From the IMG/VR virus record IMGVR_UViG_3300026484_000157, positions 32,001-96,000 of that record: DNA of 64,000 nt; one strand, given 5' to 3'. Every line of letters begins with the position of its first letter. Within the stretch, counting starts at the first letter, position 1. The translations under genes were made by a program, and so were the position numbers. This DNA is from a virus. Shown here one piece after another: positions 14,901-62,814 of the stretch. The notes beneath the pieces were generated by a model, which ran no database searches, had not been told where the DNA came from, and saw only the letters and a list, made by a program, of their open reading frames with translations.

Positions 14901-16388
14901 TTGATGGCAACAGCAACACATAACAACCCAGAAATGGGTTTGGCAATAGTACAAAAATCAGATACTGTCGGAACTATCATAACAACATACAATTCCGACA
15001 TAGAGATAGTTGCCAGTAGACTTGCTAATTATCTTGGAAGAATTCAATCTGTTGAACAATTTATAGATTCTGAAACTGATTTTATCACATTATATGGTAC
15101 AAATAAGAATGTATATACACTTAAGAAAGCATTATCTGAAATAGACAGTAGAATTTCTTCGGCAAATACAGACATAATTAAGGTTAACAATTTAATTACT
15201 GATGTTAAAGATTATATCGATAAAGAAGGATTCGGTAAACTATTAACTCAATATATGGAATATAAAGATTCATTGCTTGGTTACAAGAATCAACTTAAAT
15301 CTGATGTCTATGAAGAATTAGAAGAGAAATTTGTAAAAGAATTCACTCAAGCATTTGAAAGACTAGATGATAAGATGACATTTTTAAAATCATATGTAGT
15401 TATGGTTGAACAAATGAGAACAGATATCCTAGTAATGAGAGGGCAAGTCGAAATACAAAAGTCTGATTCACTGACTGCAATAGCTAGTGCAATGTCATCA
15501 ACTATCACAGAAATCAAAGAGGCTTCTGAGGAAGCTATAGACAATGTAGAAGACTTAGTAAGTGAAACTGCTACGATTTACAATTGGATAAAAGATACTG
15601 CTAAACCAGAGATTGATAAGATTAATGATGAAATTGGAGATTATAAAATTGCATACCATACAAATAACATGGTGGCTCAGGCAGCAGCAATTTCATCAAA
15701 CATTGCCAAGATGTATCTACAAGAAGGCACTGAGCAATATCTAAATGAAAAACAGGATTTAGTATTACTAGCAGAAAGTAAACAAGATCAACTTTCAGCT
15801 TTCACATCTACTAAAATCGATGAGATGATCGAAATCAAAAAAGATACAGAGTCATTAAAAAATTCAACAGAAGATACTTCTAATAGAATAAAATCTGATG
15901 TAGTAGTAGTTAAATCACATTCTGCCCAAATATTAGCAGAATTAGCATGGCAACAACAAGTTACTGAGAATTTTATCGACGGTAAATCAGATTTTGATAA
16001 TACAAGAGAATTTGTTCAAAATCAATTGGATTCAGATAGAGATTTTATGAAATTGGCTAAAATTCAATCTGCCCAAATGTTAGAAGATGCTAAGATAATG
16101 ACTATGGTATCTTTTCAAAATAGAATACTATGGGAAGTTAACAAAACACTTACAGATATAACAAGAAAAACTCTCAATGAAGAATTTGTTGCATTTGTGG
16201 ACTCTCAAAAGGCAGAATTGAAAGAATTTGAAACTACTCAGGCACAAGAGCAAAAAGAATTCATACAAGATGCAAAAATTGAAAATAAATATGCTAAATT
16301 ATTAGCCAACATAACACAAGCTGAAACTAAGATAACTAGACTTTATGCAATCGATTCTAGACTTATATCAATGGTTTATGCAAACTAG
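14901..16388 (+). CDS. Hypothetical long coiled-coil structural protein
   Basis: 495 aa helical ORF with SD AGGAG in tail module. Confidence 0.5.
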   Translation: MMATATHNNPEMGLAIVQKSDTVGTIITTYNSDIEIVASRLANYLGRIQSVEQFIDSETDFITLYGTNKNVYTLKKALSEIDSRISSANTDIIKVNNLITDVKDYIDKEGFGKLLTQYMEYKDSLLGYKNQLKSDVYEELEEKFVKEFTQAFERLDDKMTFLKSYVVMVEQMRTDILVMRGQVEIQKSDSLTAIASAMSSTITEIKEASEEAIDNVEDLVSETATIYNWIKDTAKPEIDKINDEIGDYKIAYHTNNMVAQAAAISSNIAKMYLQEGTEQYLNEKQDLVLLAESKQDQLSAFTSTKIDEMIEIKKDTESLKNSTEDTSNRIKSDVVVVKSHSAQILAELAWQQQVTENFIDGKSDFDNTREFVQNQLDSDRDFMKLAKIQSAQMLEDAKIMTMVSFQNRILWEVNKTLTDITRKTLNEEFVAFVDSQKAELKEFETTQAQEQKEFIQDAKIENKYAKLLANITQAETKITRLYAIDSRLISMVYAN

Positions 16389-20673: not shown

Positions 20674-20713
20674 AATGTTCTCCAATTAACTATAAAAAGT
20701 TAAGGAGAACATT
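20674..20713 (+). promoter_or_regulatory. Hairpin occluding the SD of the 20717 gene, TATAAA at its apex
   Basis: AATGTTCTCC/GGAGAACATT and TTAACT/AGTTAA inverted repeats. Confidence 0.65.
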
Positions 20714-35667: not shown

Positions 35668-37076
35668 TGTATCAATTACCAATACTTAAAACTATAATAG
35701 AATCACCAGATTCGGTTTCACTAAATGTGATCAATGAAATAAACACTAGAAAAGATATGATATTTTTGAACTCATCAACATCTTGTTTATTTGATACTAT
35801 AAAAACATTCTACCAAAAGTATAAAAAACCACCTACAAAAGATTATCTAGAATCAATGTATGCAACCGAGAAGGATAATGAAGGTCATGAGGCATTTAAA
35901 GAGATTTATGCAGATGACATTGCCTTATCTGATAATCTTTTAGCAGTTTCAGATTTACAATTCCATTTTGGTCTGAAAACTATGATAATGAGAGTGCAAA
36001 AAGAATACAATGATAAGATAAAAATGACAAATCTTACTGACATTCAAGATGTTGCAAAAGAATTTGGGGCACAACTATCGGAGATTAATCGAAATGCATC
36101 AACATCTAATAAGGCTAAATATCGATTTGATAAAGAAACTGATGCAAGAAAAGAACTAGAAGAATATTATAATAAAATGGAAGAATCAGGTTATGTAATT
36201 TCAAAAACATCAATAGAAAAAATCGATGAGATCTGGGGTGGTATCCAAAGAGATGATATGATAACAATAGGTGGATATACAGGGCAAGGTAAATCAACAT
36301 TAGCAAGATATCTTGCATATTTACAAATTTTAGATGGTAAAAATACGGTATATATAACTACTGAAATGACAAAAGAGTCAATTAGAGCCTATTTTATTTC
36401 AATGCATGTTAATAATAGAAAAATATGGGGTTATGGTAGACCATCAGTTTCAACTAAATCAATATTAACAGGGGATATGACTGCAGAACAGAAAGAATTT
36501 GTTATAGAAGCATCTGAGGATTTACATAACAATCCAAAATATGGTATATTGGAGATTATTGAACCAGATACTTATAAGTATACCATATTGGATGCATTAG
36601 ATGAAATTCAATCTATCCATAATGATGATTTTCCTATTCATCTACTGATTTGGGATTACCTAACAAATATGAAACCAAGAGAGAAATACAGTCTTGGGAA
36701 CATGAGAGAAGAATATAACAAGTCAATCTCTGATGCAAGAAGAGTTCTGCTTAATTTAGAAATACCATGGGTTGCTTGTGCACAAGTATCAAGGGGTGGA
36801 TATAATGACTACATTAAGACTGGGAAGTATACCATCGATGCATTATCTGATTTCAACGAATATGATAGATCATCTACAAAGGTAACCTTTGTTGGTCAAA
36901 CTCCTGAAATGAAACAATCATCTACTTTTGAAATACAAAATGCTAAGAGTAGAAATACACCTCTATTTGAACCAATCAAAATGGTACAAGATCCAACATC
37001 AGGACTATTTCATTCTAACATATCTAATATTGATAAAGAAGATACTATGGTAATATTAGATGAACTAGAAATCTAG
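35667..37076 (+). CDS. dnaB: Replicative DnaB-like helicase
   Basis: GGYTGQGKS Walker A, TTEM, LIWDYL, AQVSR, KSRN. Confidence 0.88.
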   Translation: MYQLPILKTIIESPDSVSLNVINEINTRKDMIFLNSSTSCLFDTIKTFYQKYKKPPTKDYLESMYATEKDNEGHEAFKEIYADDIALSDNLLAVSDLQFHFGLKTMIMRVQKEYNDKIKMTNLTDIQDVAKEFGAQLSEINRNASTSNKAKYRFDKETDARKELEEYYNKMEESGYVISKTSIEKIDEIWGGIQRDDMITIGGYTGQGKSTLARYLAYLQILDGKNTVYITTEMTKESIRAYFISMHVNNRKIWGYGRPSVSTKSILTGDMTAEQKEFVIEASEDLHNNPKYGILEIIEPDTYKYTILDALDEIQSIHNDDFPIHLLIWDYLTNMKPREKYSLGNMREEYNKSISDARRVLLNLEIPWVACAQVSRGGYNDYIKTGKYTIDALSDFNEYDRSSTKVTFVGQTPEMKQSSTFEIQNAKSRNTPLFEPIKMVQDPTSGLFHSNISNIDKEDTMVILDELEI

Positions 37077-37078
37077 TA

Positions 37079-37129
37079 TTAAAACTTCCACATTTTGTTT
37101 TTATAAATCAGTATAAATAAAATGTGGAG
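37079..37129 (+). promoter_or_regulatory. Conserved promoter embedded in an SD-occluding hairpin
   Basis: TTAAAA-N17-TATAAA; TCCACATTTT(37087-96)/AAAATGTGGA(37119-28) stem covers SD GGAG. Confidence 0.7.
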
Positions 37130-37135
37130 TTAATT

Positions 37136-38897: not shown

Positions 38898-39110
38898 AAC
38901 ATATATCTCAGGTCTTATCCTGAGATATAAACCCCACTCTAAATATCTTCATTGTATGGATGGATCAATAATAGAAATTAAACATACAATCACCAATAAG
39001 TGGATTTTCAGGAAATTTTATAATAACATATTGATTGCTGAAAAGTCATACAAGACGGAGAAAGAATTATATAAAGATTCAGGAGTCTTATGAAACCCAA
39101 GGATAACAAA

Positions 39111-42374: not shown

Positions 42375-42436
42375 TTAAAACTTTTGAAATTCAATTTTAT
42401 AGGAATATAAGAATTAAACAAATCAAGGATAACAAC
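42375..42436 (+). promoter_or_regulatory. Conserved promoter plus AAGGATAACAAC leader
   Basis: TTAAAA-N17-TATAGG; near-identical to 50670-50728. Confidence 0.75.
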
Positions 42437-43441: not shown

Positions 43442-43490
43442 TCCAAACCAATTTATAAGAGCATAACCCAACAAAGGAGTTGCTCTTATG
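43431..43490 (+). promoter_or_regulatory. Conserved promoter overlapping a start-codon-occluding hairpin
   Basis: TTAAAT-N17-TATAAG; ATAAGAGCA(43455-63)/TGCTCTTAT(43481-89). Confidence 0.65.
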
Positions 43491-49709: not shown

Positions 49710-49716
49710 TTTATAG

Positions 49717-49776
49717 TTAAAACTTCTAAATCCTGATTTTATAAGAACATAACAAATTAAAACTCAGGATAACAAC
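49717..49776 (+). promoter_or_regulatory. Conserved promoter plus leader
   Basis: TTAAAA-N17-TATAAG; CAGGATAACAAC before ATG. Confidence 0.75.
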
Positions 49777-52966: not shown

Positions 52967-53222
52967 ATTCAATAGAATAAGATTTAAAATCGAAGAAAGA
53001 GAACGATTAGAGTTAGAAGCAGATAGAATAACTGCTGAATATAATAATTCTATCACAGAAATCACATCACAAATTGCAGATCTGGATATAGATCACAAAT
53101 ATGAAGTCGCATATAATATTGGAGTTTATGCTAAAGAAAACTACAAAAAGTGTGAAAATATGACGATCTATGAAGCATATAAATATGTGGATATGCTAAT
53201 GGAAAAATATGAAGATGAATAG
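52950..53222 (+). CDS. Hypothetical protein
   Basis: 90 aa tiling ORF. Confidence 0.45.
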   Translation: MLIKAKFNRIRFKIEERERLELEADRITAEYNNSITEITSQIADLDIDHKYEVAYNIGVYAKENYKKCENMTIYEAYKYVDMLMEKYEDE

Positions 53223-57934: not shown

Positions 57935-58665
57935 AAACAATATATCTAGTAACTGGCAAAAAGAGATCAGGTAAAGATTACTTATCGGATTTAATGCTAG
58001 ATGAACTGAATAACTCTGTAACTGCAAAGTTTTCAGGACTGATGAAGTCAATTACTCAATCATTATTTTCTATTGATTCTGATCAACTAGAAGAATATAA
58101 AAATGATGAAACAATACTTATTGGTGATGTGACTAAAGTTAGAATGGACTCTCAAAGTTTGGCAACTCATTTAGTTGAGTTATATGACATTTTCAATAAT
58201 TCATTCATATTTGGAGAACATGACAAGATAAACATTAATTATGATATTGTCTATCAAGTAGTGAAAAAAGTGATGAAAGATACGAAAGTTGAAGATATTA
58301 CTTTCAGAAAATGGCTTCAAATATTTGGGACAGATATTACATATCCATTATTTGGTGATGATATCTGGGCTAGATACACATCTTATGAAATCAACCAGCT
58401 ACTTAAAAAACATGACTCTGTTATAGTTTCTGATTTCAGATTTCCTCATGAATATGAAGTAGTTAATTCAATGGCGAATAATCTCTATAAACTAGTAACC
58501 ATTAAGGTAATAGATCACAATCTTGAAGATTCATCTGATTCTCATATTAGTGAGAATGCCTTGAGTGGGTTTCACTTCGATAAACTGTTAGATAATTCAG
58601 TAAAAAACGGAGAAGAACCTATAAGAAAGTGGATAAATGAAATCATAATAAAAGGAGTCGATTAA
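57922..58665 (+). CDS. Deoxynucleoside monophosphate kinase
   Basis: TGKKRSGKD, RKWLQIFGTD, IW, VIVSDFRFPHE, HISE. Confidence 0.88.
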   Translation: MGKIKTIYLVTGKKRSGKDYLSDLMLDELNNSVTAKFSGLMKSITQSLFSIDSDQLEEYKNDETILIGDVTKVRMDSQSLATHLVELYDIFNNSFIFGEHDKININYDIVYQVVKKVMKDTKVEDITFRKWLQIFGTDITYPLFGDDIWARYTSYEINQLLKKHDSVIVSDFRFPHEYEVVNSMANNLYKLVTIKVIDHNLEDSSDSHISENALSGFHFDKLLDNSVKNGEEPIRKWINEIIIKGVD

Positions 58666-58725
58666 TGAAAATATCAGCTTAAACAGGCATCACAATCAAA
58701 GAAACAAGCAAGCATTAAGTTGGAT

Positions 58726-58741
58726 TTGCGATATATCGCAA
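58726..58741. repeat. Perfect 16-bp palindrome upstream of SSB-like gene
   Basis: TTGCGATATATCGCAA. Confidence 0.7.
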
Positions 58742-58774
58742 CCGTAAAAGCAAATAAAAAACAAGGAAAATAAA

Positions 58775-59485
58775 ATGGCATATCAAGCTGAAGAACTAGA
58801 ATTAGACGACATCGAGATCAAAGAAGAGGATCTTTCAAAACTAAAGTTAAAATTTGATCAAGACAAACAAAAAGTTAGAATTGGTTTCCCACTATTAGGA
58901 AAAACAGGTAAAGTAGCAATTAAGAGAATCAGATATTTTCCATTCTCTGAAAAATACAGAAAGCAATTTCTTGTAACAGGTGATGAGGAATTTGATAAAG
59001 AAATTGAAAAGTATATGGGTGCACCAAAAGACAAATATGTTACTGCAGTGGTACATTACCAAACTGACATGAATGGAAAACTTATTAAGAATGGTGGTCT
59101 TAGTTACATAATCAGACCTTTTGTAATTCCACAAAATAAACTGCCAGTTTTACAAGCAAGTTCAGCTGAGTTTCCATTGAATGAGCATGATTACATTCTT
59201 ACTTGTACAAATAAACAGTTCCAAAATTTTGATCTTAGCCCAACTAAAGATGCAATTTGGTTAAAAAATGACAAGATTAAATCTCAAATCATGTCAGAAA
59301 TTCAAGAAATGAATGAGGCAGGTCTTCATCAAGCAGTTGCGATCGAAGCATCTAAAGAGAAGATCAAAGAGTGGTTAGAAATTGGCAAAGAACCAGATCC
59401 TGAGCCAGAAGATGTTCCAGAACCATCAGGTGGATCAATCGATCTAGATGATGACGATGATATATCGGATCTTCTAGAAGATTAA
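58775..59485 (+). CDS. Putative single-stranded DNA-binding protein
   Basis: OB-like beta pattern and strongly acidic C-tail (DLDDDDDISDLLED) in replication cluster. Confidence 0.6.
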   Translation: MAYQAEELELDDIEIKEEDLSKLKLKFDQDKQKVRIGFPLLGKTGKVAIKRIRYFPFSEKYRKQFLVTGDEEFDKEIEKYMGAPKDKYVTAVVHYQTDMNGKLIKNGGLSYIIRPFVIPQNKLPVLQASSAEFPLNEHDYILTCTNKQFQNFDLSPTKDAIWLKNDKIKSQIMSEIQEMNEAGLHQAVAIEASKEKIKEWLEIGKEPDPEPEDVPEPSGGSIDLDDDDDISDLLED

Positions 59486-59489
59486 CTCC

Positions 59490-59520
59490 AAACAAGTCGG
59501 CATTTGCCGACTTAGTTTTA
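59490..59520 (+). terminator. Rho-independent terminator-like hairpin
   Basis: AAGTCGGC-ATTT-GCCGACTT followed by AGTTTTA. Confidence 0.65.
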
Positions 59521-59649
59521 TTAGAGTTGGACATCGGATAGAGCAAAACAATCTACAATAGTGAAGTTGTTATCCTTAGTAGAACTTGCAAAAATCGTAT
59601 AAGACATAAAATCCTATGACTCTATCAGGTGTTCAACTCTAATAAAACT
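59514..59649 (+). ncRNA. Candidate structured RNA with anti-leader seed
   Basis: 30-nt arms pairing with 27 WC, 2 G-U and 1 mismatch; loop contains GTTGTTATCCTT. Confidence 0.55.
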
Positions 59650-59676
59650 CAAATTTCAACAAAGGATTCGGAAACC

Positions 59677-61089
59677 ATGGCAAAGAAAAATAAAGAAAAA
59701 CCATTTGATTATGAAACATACAGGGATCTACTTACTAGAGTTCCAACTCATGAAGAAGCTAAAGCAATTCATAAAACATTAGCACCTAAAATCAGATCAT
59801 TAGCACCAGAAGAATATTATAATATGGATTCTGAAAAATTATGGGAATATGCAGTTGCTTATTCTTGGGATGCACATATAAGCCCTTTTAATTATGGGGA
59901 TAATACTCCAAATATCAAAGATCTAAATAACCTACTTAAAGTTAATACAAGAGCAAATATCAATGCTCAACTTGAAATAGGAAGAGGTACAAATGGTCTT
60001 AAATTCCTTAATTATTATGTTAAGGAATATTTATACAACACAGAAATTGGTGGCAGAAGTAAAACTATGATTGAAGCTAAAGATGATATTTCTTTTGTTT
60101 ATAAAGTTGTAATCAAATTAATGTACCACTCTTGTACTAATATAACAAGAAACAACATATATTCATTTTTCAAAATTGCATCTATCCAAGTTCCATCAAA
60201 CTTCAAACCTGCAGTTGCTTCAGTACTATGGGATAAGCTTGGAATTCAAAAGTTAGATAAAGATGCTACCCAATTAAATATTCTATGCCCATCAGAGGGT
60301 TGGGTATCAAGATGTTTATCGTCATATAAAATTGCACATGATAATCCACATATAAAGATAAGATATCATACAATAGATCCTAATCCACAAGTAAAAGTTG
60401 CATATAATACAATGACTAAATTTCTTAAAAATTTTGGTGGTTTCAATCGAGTTAAAAATTGGGAGACTACCTACCATTTCGGTGGATCTCAAGACATAGA
60501 ATCAATCCCAACCGACTTAATAGGTAGTATGGATGTAGTTGGAACATCTCCACCTTATTTTGGAATAACTGAGTTATACGGCTTTAACATTGCATTAATA
60601 GGGGACAATGAATTTGATCCAACTAAAGGATTCCAAACTGATCATGGCAATATGATGGTTGAAGATCTACCAGAGTTCCTAGTAACAAACCCAACTGCAG
60701 ACTCGGTTACTCAATTTGATAAAGAATTTAAAATAATAAAAACTAATGATCTTGAGAAAGATTTCACATCAGCAAACCCAAATTGTGTTTATTTTTGGGA
60801 GGCATCACAAGCATCTAACATTGACTCATACACTGGTTGGCAAGAAGAATATTTAAGACCGACAATTACAAATGCACATATAGCACTTAAAGAAAATGGA
60901 TATTTATGGATAAATGTTGCAAATTCTAAGGGTATGCCTACATTTGAGGACGATGTAACCAAAATTGTTGAAGAATGTGGATTTGAACATGTCGAAACAT
61001 ATAAAATGCTAATATCAAGATCACCTGCTCTTAAAGACAAAACTAAAAATAAACCATTTGAACCAATTTTCATATTTAAGAAGAGATAA
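59677..61089 (+). CDS. Amino-type DNA methyltransferase-like protein (N4C/N6A)
   Basis: SNFKPAVA, CPSEGWVSR (divergent motif I), IDPN, TSPPYF (motif IV), LKENGYLWINV; start ATG 59677 after SD AAGGA. Confidence 0.75.
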   Translation: MAKKNKEKPFDYETYRDLLTRVPTHEEAKAIHKTLAPKIRSLAPEEYYNMDSEKLWEYAVAYSWDAHISPFNYGDNTPNIKDLNNLLKVNTRANINAQLEIGRGTNGLKFLNYYVKEYLYNTEIGGRSKTMIEAKDDISFVYKVVIKLMYHSCTNITRNNIYSFFKIASIQVPSNFKPAVASVLWDKLGIQKLDKDATQLNILCPSEGWVSRCLSSYKIAHDNPHIKIRYHTIDPNPQVKVAYNTMTKFLKNFGGFNRVKNWETTYHFGGSQDIESIPTDLIGSMDVVGTSPPYFGITELYGFNIALIGDNEFDPTKGFQTDHGNMMVEDLPEFLVTNPTADSVTQFDKEFKIIKTNDLEKDFTSANPNCVYFWEASQASNIDSYTGWQEEYLRPTITNAHIALKENGYLWINVANSKGMPTFEDDVTKIVEECGFEHVETYKMLISRSPALKDKTKNKPFEPIFIFKKR

Positions 61090-61132
61090 CCTCTTCTTAT
61101 AAATTCCATATAAACATAAAAAGGATAACAAC
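61075..61132 (+). promoter_or_regulatory. Promoter plus AAGGATAACAAC leader
   Basis: TTTAAG-N17-TATAAA; overlapping AAGAAGAG/CTCTTCTT hairpin. Confidence 0.6.
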
Positions 61133-61756
61133 ATGGCAGTAGTACTTAATCAATTACTATCTTTAAGAAAAGAACTGATGGAGATAGTGGTAAAACCAGC
61201 AGAAACATTTACAACATTTGAACAAGATATTTCTGAAATATTCAAAGAAATTAAGGGATTAGTATCAGATTGGTCTAAATCAGATTACCCATCATATAAA
61301 GTTGCAAAATCGTTTCTTGAAAAAGACGAGGATGGTGGTTATACAATTTCTAAAGGAGAATCTCTTTGGGTAATACACACTGCAATTTACAACATCCAAG
61401 AGATCAACACTAAAATATCAATAGATTTATATGATAAAGCAGTGGAAATCCATTCTCTTGCAAAGTCATTACACAATTCATTAAAAGTTGAATTACAAAA
61501 CAATGAGAAATTATTAATGCTAATTTCTACAAAGACCGATCAAGCTAGAGAAGTAGACTTCATTATGAATAATACTAATCTACATTGGTCAACTATAGAC
61601 ATGAGATTCAAACAGATTAAAAACCTTGTAAATTATATGGAAGATCAAAGTAGTGCTTTAAATAGATTAGATTCTGCACTTAGATTGAAGCAATCAATTG
61701 ATTCTACGGCAGCATTTGAAGCAATATCTACGAGTAATACGATTGAAATTGAATAA
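61133..61756 (+). CDS. Hypothetical helical protein
   Basis: 207 aa with conserved leader. Confidence 0.5.
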   Translation: MAVVLNQLLSLRKELMEIVVKPAETFTTFEQDISEIFKEIKGLVSDWSKSDYPSYKVAKSFLEKDEDGGYTISKGESLWVIHTAIYNIQEINTKISIDLYDKAVEIHSLAKSLHNSLKVELQNNEKLLMLISTKTDQAREVDFIMNNTNLHWSTIDMRFKQIKNLVNYMEDQSSALNRLDSALRLKQSIDSTAAFEAISTSNTIEIE

Positions 61757-61975: not shown

Positions 61976-62447
61976 GAAGTCAGTACTCAGTTATGAATGT
62001 GAGATAAAAAGGTTAAATGAGTTAGTGAGAGTTTATAGATATGATTTTCTCACTAACCTTAAGATGAGGAGAGATTATTTTAATGATCTCAAAGAAAACA
62101 ATAATAAATGGTTAACTATCATTGATATTAATGATCTTCATACATTGAATCGGCATCCTGATGGTGGATATGAAGCAGGTGATCGATTAATAATCGACAC
62201 AGTAAATGCTCTGAAAGAAATATCTGAAACAGCAAATTTTAACAAAGATAATATCTACAGAATTGGTGGTGATGAATTTGCTATAATCAGTGACCACAAA
62301 ATAGAACAGTATCTAACATCAATAGATAGAATAACTTTTGCTTCTGAAAAAATAATCCATAATACAGACTACTTTAATTTAATAGATATGAAAATTAAAA
62401 CTAAAAAGCGACTCCTTTATAAAAATGCAGAGAAAAGATCAAATTAA
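61953..62447 (+). CDS. Stand-alone GGDEF (diguanylate cyclase) domain protein
   Basis: YDFLTNL, IIDINDLHTLN, GYEAGDRLI, YRIGGDEFAII. Confidence 0.88.
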   Translation: MMMVTLTKKSVLSYECEIKRLNELVRVYRYDFLTNLKMRRDYFNDLKENNNKWLTIIDINDLHTLNRHPDGGYEAGDRLIIDTVNALKEISETANFNKDNIYRIGGDEFAIISDHKIEQYLTSIDRITFASEKIIHNTDYFNLIDMKIKTKKRLLYKNAEKRSN

Positions 62448-62457
62448 AGGATAACAA

Positions 62458-62814
62458 ATGGTTTCACACCTACTCTCAAATTTAGAGAATGAAGAAATAA
62501 TTGCTAGAGTTCAAAAGATAATAGATGCAATATCTTTCAAAACAATCACATCATCAATGAATGGAGTTAATCCATTAAGTGGTAGTTATGAATCTGCAAG
62601 TGCATCTGTAACTATCGATGCTGACATTTCAGATATCAATCATGACGATATAATGATTGCTAATGTCTGTCTGTCTTATTTAAACAGAAGAGCAGTTTTA
62701 TTATCGTGGTATCAAACTGGACTAATTAAGTCTACTCAATATAAGGAACAATCTACACTTATCTTGGATAGATCAACCAAATTATTAAATCAAATGGCAA
62801 AATCAAATGGTTAA
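62458..62814 (+). CDS. Hypothetical protein
   Basis: 118 aa, leader AAGGATAACAA. Confidence 0.5.
   Translation: MVSHLLSNLENEEIIARVQKIIDAISFKTITSSMNGVNPLSGSYESASASVTIDADISDINHDDIMIANVCLSYLNRRAVLLSWYQTGLIKSTQYKEQSTLILDRSTKLLNQMAKSNG

Follow-up and report, generated by a model that had tools for sequence, protein, structure and literature searches.

A hairpin element of 136 nt (59514-59649) in the genome of a phage (IMG/VR record IMGVR_UViG_3300026484_000157) carries in its loop the exact reverse complement of a 12-nt leader, AAGGATAACAAC, which directly precedes the start codon of genes dispersed along the same genome. The record comprises 126,269 bp (31.5% G+C) and is rated complete. The window, that is, the whole 64,000-nucleotide stretch analysed here, corresponds to its bases 32001-96000, and coordinates refer to the window unless given as genome coordinates. 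The antisense 12-mer match is confirmed as real, unique and far beyond chance. Our tentative explanation, to which we give somewhat less than an even chance, is that the element acts as a + strand anti-leader RNA, masking the Shine-Dalgarno (SD) sequence and the spacer of the messages that bear this leader (hereafter class-1 messages). By analogy, it would act most like a displaced copy of the anti-SD segments that this phage has in cis, and like a hairpin of Cluster K mycobacteriophages that displays the antisense of their own standard leader. The interpretation put forward by an earlier sequence-only reading of the window, made without database searches, is partly supported.

A unique antisense copy of a shared leader

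Genome-wide, AAGGATAACAAC occurs in nine exact copies on the + strand and in one on the minus strand, the latter being the loop site itself, which reads GTTGTTATCCTT on the + strand (59566-59577). All nine + strand copies adjoin an ATG (one of them with an extra A), and in addition to these nine genes about 3-6 more carry the leader with one change. A Markov-1 model predicts 0.0034 copies of the 12-mer per genome strand and 1.8e-6 in the loop, in agreement with the sequence-only reading, which had considered a chance match very unlikely and had called for this genome-wide count. The leader copies that it listed are all present: with up to one mismatch, the window contains nine matches where 0.70 are expected (0 of 100 shuffles attain nine), eight of them on the + strand and the remaining one, on the minus strand, at the element. 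Exact targets in the window are located on the + strand at 42425-42436, 47393, 50717 and 53273, and one-mismatch copies, also on the + strand, at 39099, 49765 and 62447. The nearest class-1 leader downstream of the element (61121-61135 with its ATG, + strand) is 1.5 kb from the anti-leader, in a shared transcription unit.

The seed formed by the anti-leader can pair contiguously over at least 12 bp with 12 (of 174) start regions. The 12-bp duplex between seed and leader is predicted at -14.8 kcal/mol, with an opening cost of 3.0 kcal/mol, and the mean unpaired probability of the seed is 0.44 (0.73-0.91 over AUC and 0.22-0.32 over GUUGUU). There is a second standardised leader in this genome, AAGGAYTCGGAAA (AAGGA(C/T)TCGGAAA), found before the ATG of six genes (window 35093, 38213 and 59662; genome 7010, 17256 and 29269). 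One of them is the methyltransferase-like gene immediately downstream of the element, where AAGGATTCGGAAACC and the ATG span 59662-59679 on the + strand. For this second leader, zero antisense copies were found at up to one mismatch. Genes of the second class mostly sit within operons, without an intergenic gap.

The arms of the element (59514-59543 and 59620-59649) are complementary at 27 of their 30 positions and enclose a 76-nt loop (59544-59619) that holds the anti-leader, as the sequence-only reading had described. On the + strand, this amounts to 27 Watson-Crick pairs, two G-U pairs and one mismatch, and the 30-nt inverted repeat is the longest of 36 in the window and the sole local one of such size. 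The three deviating positions (59530 G/59633 T, 59534 T/59629 G and 59536 G/59627 A) become A-C, C-A and T-C on the minus strand. The G-U pairs thus weakly favour a + strand RNA, an argument that the sequence-only reading had already made from the same positions, but with two transitions, both fall on one strand by chance in one case in four. Likewise, the proposed sub-stem of TCTAC (59552-59556) with GTAGA (59579-59583), which would enclose the anti-leader (59552-59583, + strand), is present in the sequence but its helix is absent from the + strand minimum-energy fold. The 136-nt element alone folds at -44.5 kcal/mol on the + strand and -42.4 kcal/mol on the minus strand, and the 195-nt intergenic region at -59.1 (z -7.4) and -61.0 kcal/mol (z -6.6), respectively. 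Immediately 5' of the element lies an intrinsic terminator (59494-59513, + strand; 8 pairs, including 5 G-C, and a 4-nt loop), and the left arm starts within its T-tract, the terminator tail AGTTTTATTA being also the start of the arm.

The element is single-copy, as matches in the 126-kb genome are limited to itself and its own arms. A multicopy miniature inverted-repeat transposable element, which the sequence-only reading had named as an outcome that would overturn its proposal, is therefore excluded within this genome; blastn of the 2.5 kb spanning the element (58700-61200) against the phage collection returned zero matches. Rfam gave 0 matches at gathering scores over the window and, up to E = 10 over 59300-59900, five matches, all far under gathering scores and none of them to the C4 antisense RNA of phages; ARAGORN detected no tRNA and no tmRNA in the window. 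Two contigs from an independent run (X3), covering 59264-59552 and 59561-59711 and leaving 59553-59560 uncovered, show zero differing letters and are in the reference orientation. In runs X2 and X4, which leave 59498-59604 almost uncovered, a variant strain is present whose flanking genes differ by scattered transitions. The possible source run, X1, offers no usable cover here. An X2 contig of this strain (59357-59498) stops matching at 59498, inside the terminator, with nine unlike letters beyond, a weak hint that the spacer region may differ between strains. For runs X2 to X4, the assembled contigs were examined, in which a minority orientation could escape; no joints were reported.

Promoter cassettes and pairing in cis

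The leader AAGGATAACAAC is the 3' end of a promoter-leader cassette of about 70 nt. The cassette starts with an invariant TTAAAA, mostly in the form of TATTAAAAC or AGTTAAAAC, which is located 17 nt 5' of TATAAG in the measured copy, and 13 of the 14 listed copies share this register. Its 3' part reads TTTTATA(A/G)GAACATAAGA, followed after about 10 nt more by AAGGATAACAAC-ATG. With a promoter weight matrix (PWM) derived from 13 cassette copies, and taking sites above 8 bits, we found 16 sites (8.2 to 52.1 bits), between 69 and 124 kb of the genome plus one at 15 kb. The class-1 promoter region is devoted to replication and nucleotide metabolism. The genome is transcribed from one strand, the + strand, as the sequence-only reading had assumed: all 16 sites are on it and the cumulative skew is monotonic along the genome.

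Three observations concern the layout of these promoters. At genome 119967-120092, tandem class-1 promoters stand 59 nt apart with a 16-bp hairpin between them, and the spacer of the first complements the leader that follows the second. Upstream of the gene at 61133, whose leader is an exact class-1 copy, no promoter scores; this region (61090-61132) contains a hairpin, AAGAAGAG/CTCTTCTT, and the -10-like TATAAACATAA. Finally, a class of promoters reduced to the -10 motif (TATAAG/ACATAA) was considered and rejected, the motif being found beyond full promoters only in the element, before 61133 and inside genes.

Pairing between leader and anti-leader demonstrably recurs in cis at the class-1 promoters and is part of the regulatory grammar of the phage. 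When 122 nt were folded at each of the 16 GGATAAC-led starts, the SD was buried in four of them, paired into a helix of 11 bp or more with a segment of the -35/-10 spacer of the gene's own promoter. Spacers and leaders were compared for 15 promoters, the sixteenth (119967) being left out as its "leader" is the second promoter. Four of the 15 have in their spacer an exact complement, 10-16 nt long, of their own leader, and three further promoters have a 7-nt complement of their own SD; the remaining eight show A/T-rich matches alone, which miss the SD. Promoters with a spacer complement of 7-16 nt are located at 37073-37130, 49711-49776 and 62389-62460 in the window and at 15172-15240, 99145-99210, 105631-105698 and 118204-118271 in the genome. 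The longest complement is 8.4 nt for cognate versus 6.4 nt for non-cognate pairs, and the pairing energy -9.6 versus -6.7 kcal/mol; for both measures, 0 of 20,000 permutations reach the cognate value. Over the gene set, 4 of 172 genes have upstream an exact complement of 12 nt or more, versus 0 of 2,984 non-cognate pairs. Five of the eight + strand copies of TTATCCT are intergenic, versus 0.4 expected.

The SD sequences matched by their own spacers come in five variants (AAGGAT, CAGGAT, AAGGAAG, AAGGAGA and GTGGAG), the spacer/SD pairs being TTATCCTT/AAGGATAA, ATCCTG/CAGGAT, CTTCCTT/AAGGAAG, TCTCCTT/AAGGAGA and TCCAC/GTGGA. For example, at 49730-49770 (+ strand) the spacer motif ATCCTGA (49730-49736) complements the variant SD of the same promoter, TCAGGAT (49764-49770), and at 37087-37128 (+ strand) the spacer TCCACATTTT pairs with AAAATGTGGA in its own leader. 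That the matched SD variants differ argues for selection on pairing rather than on a shared protein site. As the spacer is 5' of the start site, RNA pairing is possible only in transcripts coming from upstream; the SD would be masked in read-through RNA and free in promoter-started RNA. Hairpins masking an SD or a start codon also occur without a promoter, at 20674-20713 and 43457-43487 in the window and at 110704-110750 and 117117-117173 in the genome, with pairs such as AATGTTCTCC with GGAGAACATT and TTTGGATATCCT with AGGATATCCAAA.

A similar arrangement exists in T4 genes e, soc, 49 and I-TevI, where hairpins sequester the ribosome-binding site (RBS) and a promoter inside the hairpin frees it, according to the available part of PMC3014915. 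As in these genes, the promoter spacers of the phage pair an anti-SD with the SD only in transcripts from further upstream. The element differs from the T4 hairpins in that it is not beside a class-1 SD, the nearest being 1.5 kb off, and has no promoter between anti-SD and SD; its pairing to the SD of the adjacent gene amounts to 6 bp, with masking only in folds without the left arm. The result on spacer anti-SDs holds regardless of the element, and presents the T4 lysozyme/soc trick as a systematic design.

The element itself contains no promoter of the phage class, its best PWM scores being -22.8 (+ strand) and -28.2 (minus strand), versus +8 to +52 for the 16 real sites, and scanning with the sigma-70 consensus revealed zero sites inside or just before it. 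Several fragments are nonetheless reminiscent of the cassette. On the + strand, the outer end of the right arm, TAATAAAACT (59640-59649), is like the -35 element ATTAAAAC with one mismatch in an invariant T, and TATAAGACATAA (59598-59609) resembles the -10/+1 core TATAAGAACATAA, of which it may be a non-scoring remnant (local similarity p ~0.03-0.05). The outer 11-12 nt of the left arm resemble the reverse complement of the -35 element, near-matches of its outer 11-mers (up to 18) being mainly on the minus strand. Local alignment of the loop with 14 cassettes reaches a score of 25 (p ~0.03-0.04 for the 42-nt right part), and ATAAGACATAAAATCC matches the initial transcribed region of one cassette at 15 of 16 positions (p ~0.03-0.04). 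A gap-tolerant alignment is collinear and marginal on the + strand (p ~0.05). On the minus strand (p ~0.26) it adds nothing past the 12-mer, which leaves a decayed minus-strand promoter-leader cassette, another outcome that the sequence-only reading had listed against itself, with no significant support. Taken one by one these resemblances are non-significant, and they are hints that the region was assembled from cassette pieces. An intact 12-mer amid unrecognisable flanks suggests that the 12-mer itself has been maintained.

Parallels in other phages

In Cluster K mycobacteriophages, a 13-nt start-associated sequence (SAS) precedes 11-19 genes, as reported in the available text of PMC3203893. 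About half of the SAS genes also have an upstream ESAS, later interpreted as a promoter with an inverted repeat (same text and that available of PMC11373665). One opposite-orientation SAS copy, away from gene starts, was left unexplained (PMC3203893, in the same portion). These portions of the two papers give no function for it, and Figs S3/S4 of PMC3203893 may show the sites. In the portion of PMC11373665 at hand, a 2024 study of phage Adephagia, the role of the SAS is still called ill-defined, and an anti-SAS hairpin is unmentioned both there and in the corresponding portion of PMC12699233.

After dropping one site doubled by overlapping loci, we counted in Adephagia, at up to two mismatches, 16 SAS sites on the + strand and one on the minus strand. 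The latter (record 58682-58694) lies within the 432-bp gap between gp92 and gp93, where it is the 10-nt apical loop, CCUCCUAUCC, of a 13+6-bp hairpin of the + strand (record 58661-58712; L212:12662-12713). In this gap, the anti-SAS is on the transcribed strand, between a terminator and a gene whose SD is different, and a 181-nt stretch folds at -94.9 kcal/mol (z -6.7). As late transcription appears to begin between genes 92 and 93 (PMC11373665, available part), the anti-SAS hairpin would sit in the late leader. The 66-nt anti-SAS hairpin matches 120 Mycobacterium phage records, and we aligned Adephagia with 10 records chosen across the identity range (n = 11). The loop 12-mer is identical in 10 of the 11 sequences. 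Two of the 16 stem pairs have compensatory changes, and several are Watson-Crick in some phages and G-U in others when read on the + strand. Pairing is lost in 0 of 110 cells of the outer helix and in 3 of 66 cells of the inner helix. The SAS leader is identical across the phages examined, and the deviant loop, that of phage Ekdilam, comes without a matching leader change. Short tandem repeats of the CGCCGA(C/A)GCC type are found in Adephagia right after the gp92 terminator (L212:12500-12545), upstream of two hairpins.

The two systems have in common a standard leader of 12-13 nt that abuts the start codon in some of the non-structural genes, a promoter cassette containing an inverted repeat upstream of part of these genes, and a single opposite-orientation copy off gene starts (9 + / 1 - here, 16 + / 1 - in Adephagia). 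They differ in that AAGGATAACAAC has no homology to GGGATAGGAGCCC or to ESAS (blastn against the phage collection is empty), in host phylum and base composition, and in architecture, the seed being here within a 76-nt loop on a 30-bp stem instead of a 10-nt apical loop on a 13+6-bp stem. Practically, the Cluster K link matters most: these phages can be engineered and propagated on Mycobacterium smegmatis, and RNA-seq data for them are published, so that a conserved hairpin displaying the anti-SAS offers a direct experimental handle on the role of the SAS leader.

Other known systems share single traits with the element. In T7 early mRNA, genes are separated by RNase III sites in long intergenic helices, and in lambda sib retroregulation a helix is completed only by terminator read-through. 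These sites are not known to carry a seed complementary to the leaders of other genes, as the loop does here. The helix of the element is long enough for RNase III (at least about 20 bp), of which it is a candidate substrate. The C4 antisense RNA is transcribed from its own promoter and processed, and its action is on a single operon, as part of an immunity switch. Like C4 of phages P1 and P7 (Rfam RF01695, mentioned in the available part of PMC8198154), the element would be a phage-encoded antisense RNA on the same transcript as downstream targets, blocking their expression; unlike C4, it would have as targets a dispersed dozen or so leaders, and it matches no Rfam family. As with base-pairing small RNA (sRNA) genes, the seed complements a translation-initiation region of its targets (12 of 12 positions to nine leaders), but the element lacks an own promoter, a 3' intrinsic terminator and a curated RNA family. 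PeSL cassettes of T4-type phages consist of a promoter plus a terminator, are repeated and intergenic, and serve as recombination points (PMC2839356, as far as available). Such recombining regulatory cassettes are a plausible source of a scrambled fragment, but the element is single-copy, and an antisense leader is not described for PeSLs in the available part of that paper. Our literature search, based on partial texts, yielded no description of an RNA regulator that is an antisense copy of a shared leader.

Proposed mode of action and competing explanations

As the left arm begins in the T-tract of the terminator, an RNA form of the element requires read-through mRNA or processing. The next scoring promoter after the terminator is at 62389, so that the element and the genes from 59677 onwards would most simply be expressed by read-through from 53220. 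According to the mechanism that we propose, transcripts of the upstream operon would start at the class-1 promoter near 53220 and read through the terminator (59494-59513). The read-through RNA would fold into the 30-bp stem, whose loop would display AUCCUU and, more weakly, GUUGUU, which together complement the SD-plus-spacer leader AAGGAUAACAAC just 5' of the AUG. Pairing with the loop would mask the SD and thereby keep the 30S subunit from binding class-1 messages, either in trans or over a long distance along the read-through RNA that carries the loop (the next class-1 leader being at 61121), and the result would be a delayed negative feedback on the class-1 gene set. The 30-bp helix being a plausible RNase III substrate, the loop might be released as an RNA of about 80-100 nt. 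We have shown the anatomy of the element, its uniqueness and complementarity, the transcribed strand and the cis anti-SD grammar of the genome, and we infer the read-through, the processing, the pairing in vivo and its effect.

Several points weigh against such an anti-leader RNA. Its production depends on leakage of the terminator at 59494-59513; a promoter for a separate RNA was not found in or just before the element with the PWM and sigma-70 scans, nor a terminator after the right arm, the sole + strand terminator in 58600-61300 preceding the left arm. The element is thus not built like a classical sRNA gene, contrary to the discrete gene for an RNA of about 130 nt envisaged from sequence alone. 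Half of the seed, GUUGUU, is paired within the loop in the predicted ensemble (unpaired 0.22-0.32). Folding energies do not tell the strands apart (-59.1 versus -61.0 kcal/mol for the 195 nt), and the strand argument from G-U pairs is a 1-in-4 event. Weak collinear resemblances to the cassette (the -35-like end of the right arm, TATAAGACATAA and the + strand alignment at p ~0.05) suggest recombination debris. The parallels have their weaknesses too. Cis promoter pairs are paralogues, so that their cognate signal may partly reflect inheritance and not selection. The stem and seed of the element are known from this one phage alone. In the Cluster K phages, the Ekdilam loop is changed, yet 13 of its 62 listed starts retain the canonical leader GGGATAGGAGCC, and a hypothetical coding sequence is annotated over the anti-SAS hairpin in 4 of the 10 fetched records.

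The main alternative, which we regard as unlikely though worth serious attention, is that the element is an orphaned cassette fragment, i.e. recombination debris in which the 12-mer is idle. It could be, for instance, a former promoter with a spacer anti-leader (as at genome 15172 and 118204) in which the methyltransferase-like gene, with its different leader, has taken the place of the original -10, leader and gene. Cis anti-leaders of core TTATCCTT do occupy promoter spacers elsewhere, the loop has TATAAGACATAA resembling the -10/+1 core, the right arm ends with the -35-like TAATAAAACT followed by the spacer-like CAAATTTCAA, the + strand gapped alignment with the cassette has p ~0.05, and the downstream gene has a different leader class. 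Promoter/stem-loop cassettes are moreover recombination hot spots in T4-type phages (PMC2839356, available part), and the variant contig that ceases matching at 59498, with its nine unlike letters, is a weak hint in the same direction. However, the promoter parts would have decayed past scoring (-22.8) while the 12-mer stayed at 12 of 12 and the arms at 27 of 30; by our estimate, an intact 12-mer has a probability of ~0.07 at ~20% neutral divergence. Similarities beyond the 12-mer are non-significant after correcting for the cassettes tried, and the 30-bp stem is left unexplained. Another reading is that the hairpin serves processing or stability only, as an RNase III-type site or end-protecting structure between the upstream operon and the methyltransferase-like gene, with an incidental loop sequence: the near-perfect 30-bp helix is mRNA-sense and intergenic, right after a terminator. 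We nevertheless find this improbable, as the 12 of 12 match (1.8e-6 expected in the loop) is then unaccounted for, no other such intergenic hairpin is present in the window, and the phage genome encodes no RNase III gene, so that the host enzyme would be needed. Slightly more improbable still is a role at the DNA level, as a protein site, cruciform or single-strand hairpin serving replication or recombination, with GGATAAC as an operator half-site in either orientation. Both strands fold equally well, and the spacer/leader inverted repeats that flank the -10 of several promoters could be operators, but these repeats vary between promoters yet stay complementary, which fits nucleic-acid pairing and not a common protein site. 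The cumulative skew has no inflection at the element, its monotonic course leaving the reading as a replication origin unsupported, and no tyrosine or serine recombinase is encoded.

The remaining alternatives seem to us hardly probable. In one of them, AUCCUU (59572-59577) or AAUCCU (59610-59615) would pair with the SD of the methyltransferase-like gene, AAGGAUU, in RNAs without the left arm, making the element a cis anti-SD for that gene, an idea to which we give little credence. The fold of 59544-59710 pairs this SD (unpaired probability 0.01-0.2), which is mostly free with the left arm (0.3-0.9), and the two segments lie about as far apart as in the other cis pairs of the phage, but the pairing is of 6 bp at most (AUCCUU/AAGGAU; whole fold -13.1 kcal/mol), no internal promoter would make an RNA without the left arm, and the stretch complementary to the other leader class has twice that length. 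A minus-strand product, either a leader copy without an open reading frame acting as a decoy for a leader-binding factor or a decayed minus-strand cassette, appears very unlikely. On that strand, the 12-mer does read as a leader, located in the loop of a small hairpin and preceded at a distance of 27 nt by ATTTTATG, but no ATG follows, the best PWM score is -28.2 with no sigma-70-like site in the element, all 16 promoter hits and the gene calls (the latter by construction) are on the + strand, and the cassette alignment adds nothing to the 12-mer (p ~0.26). The least credible reading of all, which we consider extremely improbable, is an invertible switch in which the 30-bp repeats are recombination sites flipping a segment of 76 bp. 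Inverted repeats do bracket a short segment with promoter-like fragments, but this segment has no scoring promoter in either orientation, and no resolvase or integrase family is present in the genome (PF00239 and PF00589: none, whereas controls were detected in 12 and 14 of 14 genomes). In addition, two X3 contigs, which enter the loop from each side and stop short of the 12-mer, are both in the reference orientation, although a minority form could be missed.

The anti-leader RNA can also be placed in a wider scheme, which we put forward as a speculation more likely wrong than right. It would be a two-tier system. In the first tier, most class-1 promoters would have in their untranscribed spacer a private complement of their own SD, which would leave read-through RNA silent and allow translation only of RNA started at the promoter itself. 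In the second, a free-standing anti-leader, released by RNase III from its 30-bp stem in the read-through region behind the SSB-like gene, would titrate the common leader and shut off the class-1 genes with the accumulation of their own transcripts. The same switch would have arisen convergently in the anti-SAS hairpin of Cluster K. Temporal class shut-off in lytic phages is known to work via proteins, e.g. RegA and RegB of T4. An RNA reading a standardised leader would, if our explanation is true, be a different and very compact switch for a dozen genes. Under the two-tier scheme, the SAS leader would moreover gain a function that the 2011 and 2024 papers call unknown.

As for the neighbouring genes, 191 non-coding bases separate the stop of the upstream gene (58775-59485, + strand; 236 aa) from the ATG (59677) of the downstream one (59677-61089, + strand; 470 aa). 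While the terminator between them is as the sequence-only reading described, its gene labels fared less well. The upstream protein, putatively an SSB, owes this label to an acidic C-terminal tail alone and has no match in Pfam, PHROG or PDB; just two homologues were detected, P0014 (96% identity, on an 881-bp contig) and P0015 (51%, on a 971-bp contig). The downstream protein matches Pfam N6_N4_Mtase below threshold (E 0.009; 16.4 bits for a cut-off of 26.7), has an SPPY motif and shows PF01555 in 5 of 12 distant homologues, consistent with the label methyltransferase-like. A protein on a 5.5-kb contig (P0002) is 54% identical to it. No related locus was found in viral, metagenome and genome contigs with the SSB-like protein or its 3-sequence alignment, or with the methyltransferase-like protein or its 2-sequence alignment.

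At the nucleotide level, the exact 15-mer of leader plus ATG occurs in at least 117 stretches of viral contigs (83 listed) and the exact 16-mer promoter core in 90 stretches (80 listed); among those listed, the hits are single and chance-like, except for one locus with two (L055). The gene call, which is crude and covers the + strand only, comprises 174 genes amounting to 94% of the genome, all on that strand by construction. Searches by tblastn with two other proteins of the phage gave either no match or about 28% identity to Enterococcus phage polymerases. Finally, although tblastn against the phage collection is empty for it, the protein encoded at 24375-25490 matches PHROG 20948 at E 2e-91.

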